Origin: Escherichia coli
GTDB lineage: Bacteria > Pseudomonadota > Gammaproteobacteria > Enterobacterales > Enterobacteriaceae
Strand: one strand, 5' to 3'
DNA: 64,000 bases
NCBI RefSeq assembly: GCF_003334765.1
Contig: NZ_QOWT01000004.1
Part shown: piece by piece, positions 13,511-13,549 of the stretch
How the letters are laid out: each line of letters starts with the position of its first letter
Position numbering within the stretch: position 1 is the first letter of the stretch
The notes under the pieces: generated by a model
Seen by the model: only the letters and a program-made list of their open reading frames with translations
Databases searched by the model: none
What the model was told of the DNA's origin: nothing
Program-made: the position numbers and the translations under genes

Positions 13511-13549
13511 CAATGCATTCCGGCCTGCAGTGCAGGCCGGAGATAATCT

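Follow-up and report, generated by a model that had tools for sequence, protein, structure and literature searches.

A perfect palindrome occupies the centre of the gap between the convergent genes murJ and flgN of Escherichia coli, and published mapping places the 3′ end of flgN-ending mRNAs 8 nt beyond its stem. On balance we believe that this GC-rich stem-loop, which lacks a U-tract, defines and protects the 3′ end of these mRNAs without being a canonical intrinsic terminator, and that RNA polymerase is released mostly downstream of it by Rho. murJ mRNA could adopt the same fold, and a comparable role may be supposed for it. The features concerned are listed below by their coordinates in the window, i.e. 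the whole 64,000-nucleotide stretch of DNA that was analyzed. Adding 1,115,864 to a window coordinate gives the position in NC_000913.3, where murJ is located at 1127839-1129374 and flgN at 1129414-1129830.

11975..13510, + strand: murJ coding sequence (lipid II flippase); stop codon at 13508-13510, 8 nt before the stem
13550..13966, - strand: flgN coding sequence (flagellar export chaperone); stop codon at 13550-13552, 8 nt before the stem on the - strand
13511..13549, no strand assigned: murJ-flgN intergenic gap, 39 bp; the whole gap is flgN 3′ UTR (40 nt according to TRS)
13519..13541, no strand assigned: perfect palindrome TCCGGCCTGCA-G-TGCAGGCCGGA, 23 bp
13511 (MG1655 1129375), - strand: dominant 3′ end of flgN-ending mRNA, class 'Primary' in TRS (PMC10687069)
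13262..13283, dominant position 13276 (MG1655 1129140), - strand: second 3′ end, R = 0.54 (PMC10687069)
13883 (MG1655 1129747), + strand: Rho termination region (Adams et al. 2021, PMC7815308)

The flgMN and flgAMN transcripts have flgN as their last gene; in the annotation it is followed by flgM and flgA. The first-pass annotation of this DNA had reported a 39-bp gap between the convergent murJ and flgN stop codons and, in the gap, a perfect hairpin with 10-bp arms and a loop of one nucleotide. The gap is as described, the span of 13511-13549 being the entire intergenic region with the palindrome in its centre. The reported core, CCGGCCTGCAGTGCAGGCCGG, was found at 13520-13540 and proved to be one pair longer (T13519:A13541), giving DNA arms of 11 bp around the central G13530. 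Since a 1-nt loop is impossible in RNA, the transcript of either strand would form a 10-bp stem (13519-13528 with 13532-13541), made of a U:A pair and nine further pairs that are mostly G:C, and a 3-nt loop (13529-13531). The perfect arms around a single nucleotide are a property of K-12-like DNA only: in other Escherichia the loop reads AGT, ATC, ATT or ACT, and the innermost A/T 'pair' is not kept.

Folding of the 39-bp gap alone gave -20.8 kcal/mol. In 60-nt contexts the energies were -23.5 kcal/mol for the + strand and -21.3 kcal/mol for the - strand, with z-scores of -3.8 and -3.3, respectively, and the hairpin persisted in folds of 100-nt contexts. The palindrome is a non-chance feature; the number of matches to its pattern expected from window shuffles was 0.00, and a first-order Markov model predicts about 0.65 perfect hairpins per window with stems of 10 bp or longer. 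An Rfam scan of window positions 13000-14100 at a permissive threshold produced no match. The 501 bases around the hairpin are 100% identical to those of E. coli K-12 (O16:H48), and each of 5426 complete E. coli genomes contains them a single time. The palindrome itself was found at one locus per genome in the same set, the second match in each genome presumably being its own opposite strand, and a multi-copy repeat was ruled out by this count. The MG1655 record carries no repeat or terminator feature of any kind in its annotation, and it is uninformative on the hairpin because it also lacks the REP known from the flgF-flgG gap.

A canonical intrinsic terminator requires a GC-rich stem-loop and a U-rich tract directly 3′ of the stem. 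The stem-loop is present (10 bp, about -20 kcal/mol, on both strands). The U-tract is missing from either strand: three of the eight nucleotides after the stem are T on each, with a longest run of two, in agreement with the first-pass statement that no strong U-run flanks the hairpin. A simple terminator scan did not call the hairpin. On a d'Aubenton-Carafa-type scale it scored -24 (+) and -19 (-), and canonical terminators elsewhere in the window scored +11 to +52. The GC-rich stem-loop and an RNA end 8 nt downstream are shared with canonical intrinsic terminators; the missing U-tract and the negative scores on both strands set the hairpin apart from them. The 3′ ends and the Rho region located downstream argue for substantial read-through past the hairpin.

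A primary 3′ end has been mapped on the flgN strand. The TRS peak extends over MG1655 1129367-1129382 (window 13503-13518), and its dominant position is 8 nt beyond the last stem pair, which leaves the tail AUGCAUUG on the RNA (PMC10687069). R, defined as read starts at the site divided by the sum of those at the site and downstream, so that 1 means no read-through, was 0.63 and 0.75 in two datasets, with adjusted p values of 1e-23 to 1e-78 and three replicates in each dataset; the authors' own fold of the hairpin gave -21.3 kcal/mol (PMC10687069). In the same tables coverage of the flgN 3′ UTR (2.8, 4.1, 2.9) was about twice that of the coding sequence (1.3, 1.6, 1.5), as expected of a stable terminal fragment. 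It had been proposed that the stem-loop stabilizes both transcripts. For flgN this is supported by the mapped end and the doubled coverage of the 3′ UTR; for murJ the TRS and Adams et al. tables list no + strand end at the hairpin.

The distance of 8 nt fails to separate trimming from termination, because intrinsic termination would give the same end. The flgN end could therefore also be produced by a weak non-canonical intrinsic terminator that serves flgN only, in which the hairpin and a partly U-containing tail, AUGCAUUGUU, free some of the polymerases and the rest continue; R values of 0.63-0.75 imply partial read-through and count in favour of this. We nevertheless consider such a terminator rather improbable, given that the longest U-run in the tail is two, that the - strand score is well below zero and that the sequence of the tail after the stem on the flgN side varies within Escherichia.

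Our preferred reading, a stem-loop that marks the RNA end with polymerase release further on, is consistent with the second - strand 3′ end, which lies antisense inside murJ, 235 nt past the first. Over the 500 nt downstream of the stem on this strand there are 148 C versus 111 G, and the C:G ratio peaks at 3.0 at 150-200 nt. The C-rich, G-poor stretch at about 13320-13470 (-), before the second end, is a candidate Rho loading region. The bicyclomycin table of Adams et al. contains no Rho region on the - strand downstream of flgN, and their curated Term-seq lists for three conditions contain no dominant end at 11293xx-11294xx (PMC7815308). The TERMITe and SMRT-Cappable-seq supplements and the literature on ProQ and flgN, on flgMN terminators and on mviN/flgN held nothing for the hairpin site. 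A small RNA derived from the flgN 3′ UTR was considered and rejected: its 40-nt U-less tail makes it a poor Hfq-type candidate, and no support for it was found. Within flgN itself a separate hairpin, AGCGTTGACTAATATCAACGCT, is present at 13741-13762, about 200 nt past the palindrome, with a terminator-like call on the + strand; on the - strand an internal flgN 3′ end, mapped to 1129598 (window 13734) with R = 0.36, follows this hairpin at a distance of 7 nt (PMC10687069).

The murJ strand gave a different picture. The TRS tables list no + strand 3′ end between 1129126 and 1135539, and hence none for murJ at the hairpin (PMC10687069). The first-pass annotation had suggested a bidirectional terminator and 3′-end mapping on both strands as the check; the published tables (PMC10687069, PMC7815308) provide the - strand end at 1129375 and lack its + strand counterpart, so that a role on the + strand finds no support in them. 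Expression of murJ may be too weak for its 3′ end to appear. On this strand the Rho region at 1129747 lies antisense inside flgN, 342 nt past the stem. Reads upstream and downstream of it were 72 and 16 in untreated cells and 142 and 156 with bicyclomycin (Rho score 4.94, p = 5.9e-9; PMC7815308). Its source could be antisense transcription initiated within flgN and not murJ read-through. Enrichment of C downstream of the stem is weak on this strand (123 C versus 117 G, local peak 1.7). According to ExcludonFinder, the transcripts of the convergent pair murJ-flgN overlap in 50% or more of 58 RNA-seq sets (PMC12288877), an overlap that would be automatic if the flgN mRNA reaches to within one base of the murJ stop codon. 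The + strand Rho region, the second - strand end and the overlapping transcripts together indicate that on both strands part of the transcription continues beyond the hairpin.

These observations bear directly on a true bidirectional terminator, in which the hairpin would pause the polymerases arriving from both genes, and head-on and trailing collisions would release them with neither a U-tract nor Rho. Such elements (Ju et al. 2019; Wang et al. 2022) are described in bioRxiv 10.1101/2022.10.23.513370 as hairpins without U-tracts that act as pause sites at which converging polymerases terminate each other independently of Rho. The murJ-flgN hairpin shares with this class a stem-loop common to two convergent genes, a short convergent gap, a non-intrinsic appearance and overlapping transcripts. 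The flgN end 8 nt past the stem would also be accommodated, as would the symmetric placement of the stem 8 nt from each stop codon. One nucleotide before the mapped end there is, in addition, an elemental-pause-like match, G(-10)/U(-1)/G(+1). However, of the two 3′ ends to be expected only that of flgN is documented, the + strand end at the hairpin being absent from the TRS and Adams et al. tables. The bicyclomycin-sensitive region 342 nt on, whose source transcripts could start inside flgN, and the second 3′ end on the - strand also count against this mechanism. Since murJ and flgMN are modestly and conditionally expressed, collisions should also be rare. The first-pass idea of a bidirectional terminator was not demonstrated by the tables, and we regard a collision mechanism as possible but doubtful.

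Several other sites in the window deserve mention. At 31815-31840 a perfect palindrome with 11-bp arms, CAGTGCCTGCAGCATTGCAGGCACTG (-19.8 kcal/mol, no U-run), lies just past the small ORF 31503-31676, in the 5′ part of a 356-aa ORF (31757-32827) that we take, from its position, to be plsX. A second U-less perfect hairpin, TTGCCGGATGCGTGCCATCCGGCAA, which is similar to the REP main stem, is found at 2001-2025 in a 41-bp gap (1995-2035) between the convergent ORFs 888-1994 (+) and 2036-2611 (-; yceI in a published table). A + strand Rho region at 1117985 (window 2121) is antisense to yceI (Adams et al.), and the layout is the same as at murJ/flgN. A Rho termination region is also present inside murJ, at window 12598 (MG1655 1128462, +), with a Rho score of 4.0 (Adams et al., PMC7815308), which suggests premature termination within the murJ ORF.

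Comparison within the genus indicates that the stem is kept. Thirteen distinct sequences were compared, from E. coli lineages, E. albertii, E. whittamii and divergent Escherichia lineages. Variation was seen in none of the 20 stem columns, but in 13 of the 19 columns of the gap that are unpaired (Fisher p = 3.3e-6) and in 19 of the 60 columns of flanking coding sequence (p = 0.002). The gap was 39 bp with the same stem in every sequence compared, and the 8-nt distance from stem to stop codon was constant on both sides. From these alignments the stem looks to be under constraint and seemingly selected. As the stem never varies in the genus, there are no compensatory changes within Escherichia that would prove a role at the RNA level, and a palindrome can also stay perfect in the absence of selection, through hairpin-templated repair. 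Both points leave some room for a neutral relic of decayed REPs, or for an element acting at the DNA level, such as a protein-binding palindrome or a cruciform, with no RNA function; the alignment of the palindrome to REP tails, described below, is compatible with this too. Yet the stem is invariant next to non-coding columns most of which vary, an abundant RNA 3′ end maps directly after it, and a hairpin is kept at this place in nearly all sampled genera despite turnover of its sequence. We know of no protein-binding site in the palindrome, and we give very little credence to a relic or DNA-level element.

The position of the hairpin is more widely kept than its sequence. We sampled 61 loci encoding FlgN relatives, one genome per species, together with E. 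coli variants, and extracted the murJ-flgN gap from each. Of the 60 sampled loci whose gap could be read (L004-L061, L064), 58 had a hairpin between both stop codons; the gaps of about 1.7 kb in L057 and L059 were left unfolded. The hairpin sequence at this junction differs across genera. In Enterobacter, Lelliottia, Leclercia and their relatives the gap contains AAAAGGGGAG...CTCCCC, which on the flgN strand is a stem followed by UUUU, i.e. a canonical flgN terminator unrelated to the Escherichia palindrome. Its U-run on the flgN strand at the same position is a further point in favour of a weak flgN terminator in Escherichia, the reading that we judged improbable above. The Kosakonia gap contains TTTTGCCAGGGG...CCCTGGCAAAAAAA, a textbook two-way terminator. 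In Salmonella and Citrobacter the gaps are 70-91 bp and are filled with REP-like units (GCCGGATG...ATCCGGCCTAC, then GTAGGCC(G/T)GATAAG...), which resemble the bona fide REPs of the window at 18786-18819 and 49879-49949.

Some records in this sample were unusual in themselves. In L057 (Enterobacter sp. CC120223-11) and L059 (a Pluralibacter MAG) flgN and murJ are separated by about 1.7 kb versus the usual 40-100 bp, with extra sequence inserted. The records L049 and L062, titled Chryseobacterium sp. 18061 and Microvirga antarctica, carry an enterobacterial flgN (L049 also murJ) and are probably contaminant or mislabelled contigs.

A relation of the hairpin to REP repeats had been missed in the first-pass annotation. 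The REP consensus is an imperfect palindrome of about 35 nt with the main stem GCC(G/T)GATG...CATC(C/A)GGC and a CTAC/GTAG tail; this consensus was checked against the window copies at 18786-18819 and 49879-49949. The former is a full unit, TGCCGGATGCGGCGTAAACGCCTTATCCGGCCTAC, on the - strand of the flgF-flgG gap inside the flgB operon, and the latter is an inverted REP pair near 49.9 kb. The palindrome arms TCCGGCCTGC and GCAGGCCGGA match REP tails (ATCCGGCCTAC), and full REP pairs fill the same gap in Salmonella and Citrobacter. When the gaps were aligned with the coding flanks as anchors, both Escherichia arms aligned to the inner tails of the Salmonella/Citrobacter REP pair, that is, to its tail-to-tail junction, and the outer REP arms were missing in Escherichia. 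An 11-mer, CCGGCCTGCAG, is shared with the gap of Citrobacter werkmanii. Unlike REPs, the palindrome has the tail motif alone, without the main stem (GCCGGATG...CATCCGGC), and its stem joins the tails of two former units instead of lying inside one. Lacking the main stem and being single-copy in E. coli, it falls outside the REP definition.

Across Escherichia, Salmonella and Citrobacter, 6 of the 13 pairs of the central stem are changed on both sides, e.g. TAC/GTA to TGC/GCA and CCGG/CCGG to CAGA/TCTG, a count that is inflated because the segments were picked with a hairpin-shaped pattern and because REP copies share a family consensus. Of the cells in this stem 83% are paired, versus 27-46% in slid controls, and the observed covariation score was reached by no shuffle. 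The anchored alignment and the shared 11-mer point to a REP pair at this position as the ancestor of the palindrome, which is probably a trimmed remnant of such a tail-to-tail pair (BIME). The alignment supports homology; that the outer arms were lost, and not gained elsewhere, we infer from the species tree. We propose that in Escherichia this remnant took the place of the canonical flgN terminator of the Enterobacter-like genera. REPs have been proposed to act as partial Rho-dependent terminators and as decay blocks, convergent genes included (bioRxiv 10.64898/2026.03.23.713779), and by analogy it would be unsurprising if a REP remnant did both.

The sequence of events that we favour is the following. 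RNA polymerase would run through the hairpin on both strands, perhaps pausing, and would go into the untranslated antisense sequence of the facing gene, where Rho would free it within a few hundred nucleotides. Exonucleases acting in the 3′-to-5′ direction would trim the RNA back to the stem-loop, so that it ends precisely 8 nt beyond the last stem pair. In this scheme exonuclease trimming, and the dependence on Rho of the - strand, are presumed steps.

Such a scheme is close to that of Dar & Sorek 2018 (PMC6061677), who described a class of stem-loops without a U-rich tail or an upstream A-tract, followed by a mild enrichment of C over G, and explained the precision of their ends by protection from PNPase and RNase II. 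The murJ-flgN hairpin is alike in being a stable stem-loop just upstream of a precise steady-state end on the - strand (1129375; on the + strand none is reported) and in lacking both U-tail and A-tract. It is also followed by sequence richer in C than in G, clearly on the - strand and weakly on the + strand, and by a Rho region downstream on the + strand. It differs in that for the flgN end we infer the Rho dependence, in that one palindrome could serve two convergent transcripts, and in its REP-tail origin, which is specific to this site.

The spacing of the stem invites one further idea. The 8 nt that separate it from either stop codon are about the downstream reach of a terminating ribosome, and ribosomes reportedly stall at REPs that lie no more than about 15 nt from a stop codon (Liang, Rudd and Deutscher 2015). 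The hairpin might accordingly be a translation-gated switch, in which a ribosome finishing murJ or flgN transiently hinders folding and so sets the extent of antisense run-on into the facing gene. We rate this as a speculation with only a slight chance of being correct. If true, it would couple expression of MurJ, a cell-wall flippase, to that of FlgN and of the anti-sigma factor FlgM, and a REP remnant would have been domesticated into a functional 'excludon'.

A published supplementary table (PMC10687069) already contains the flgN end and its fold, uncommented; new here are the test of conservation, the turnover between genera and the origin from REP tails. Beyond annotation the hairpin matters little. 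As an annotation, it offers a structural explanation for the mapped 3′ end of flgN and describes the Escherichia flgMN and flgAMN transcripts as lacking a canonical terminator. It also provides a clear case of terminator turnover at one conserved gene junction, which is occupied by a canonical terminator, a REP pair or a trimmed REP remnant depending on the genus. If read-through past the hairpin has consequences, these would be antisense RNA against murJ, which is essential, or against flgN and flgM, which belong to the flagellar checkpoint.
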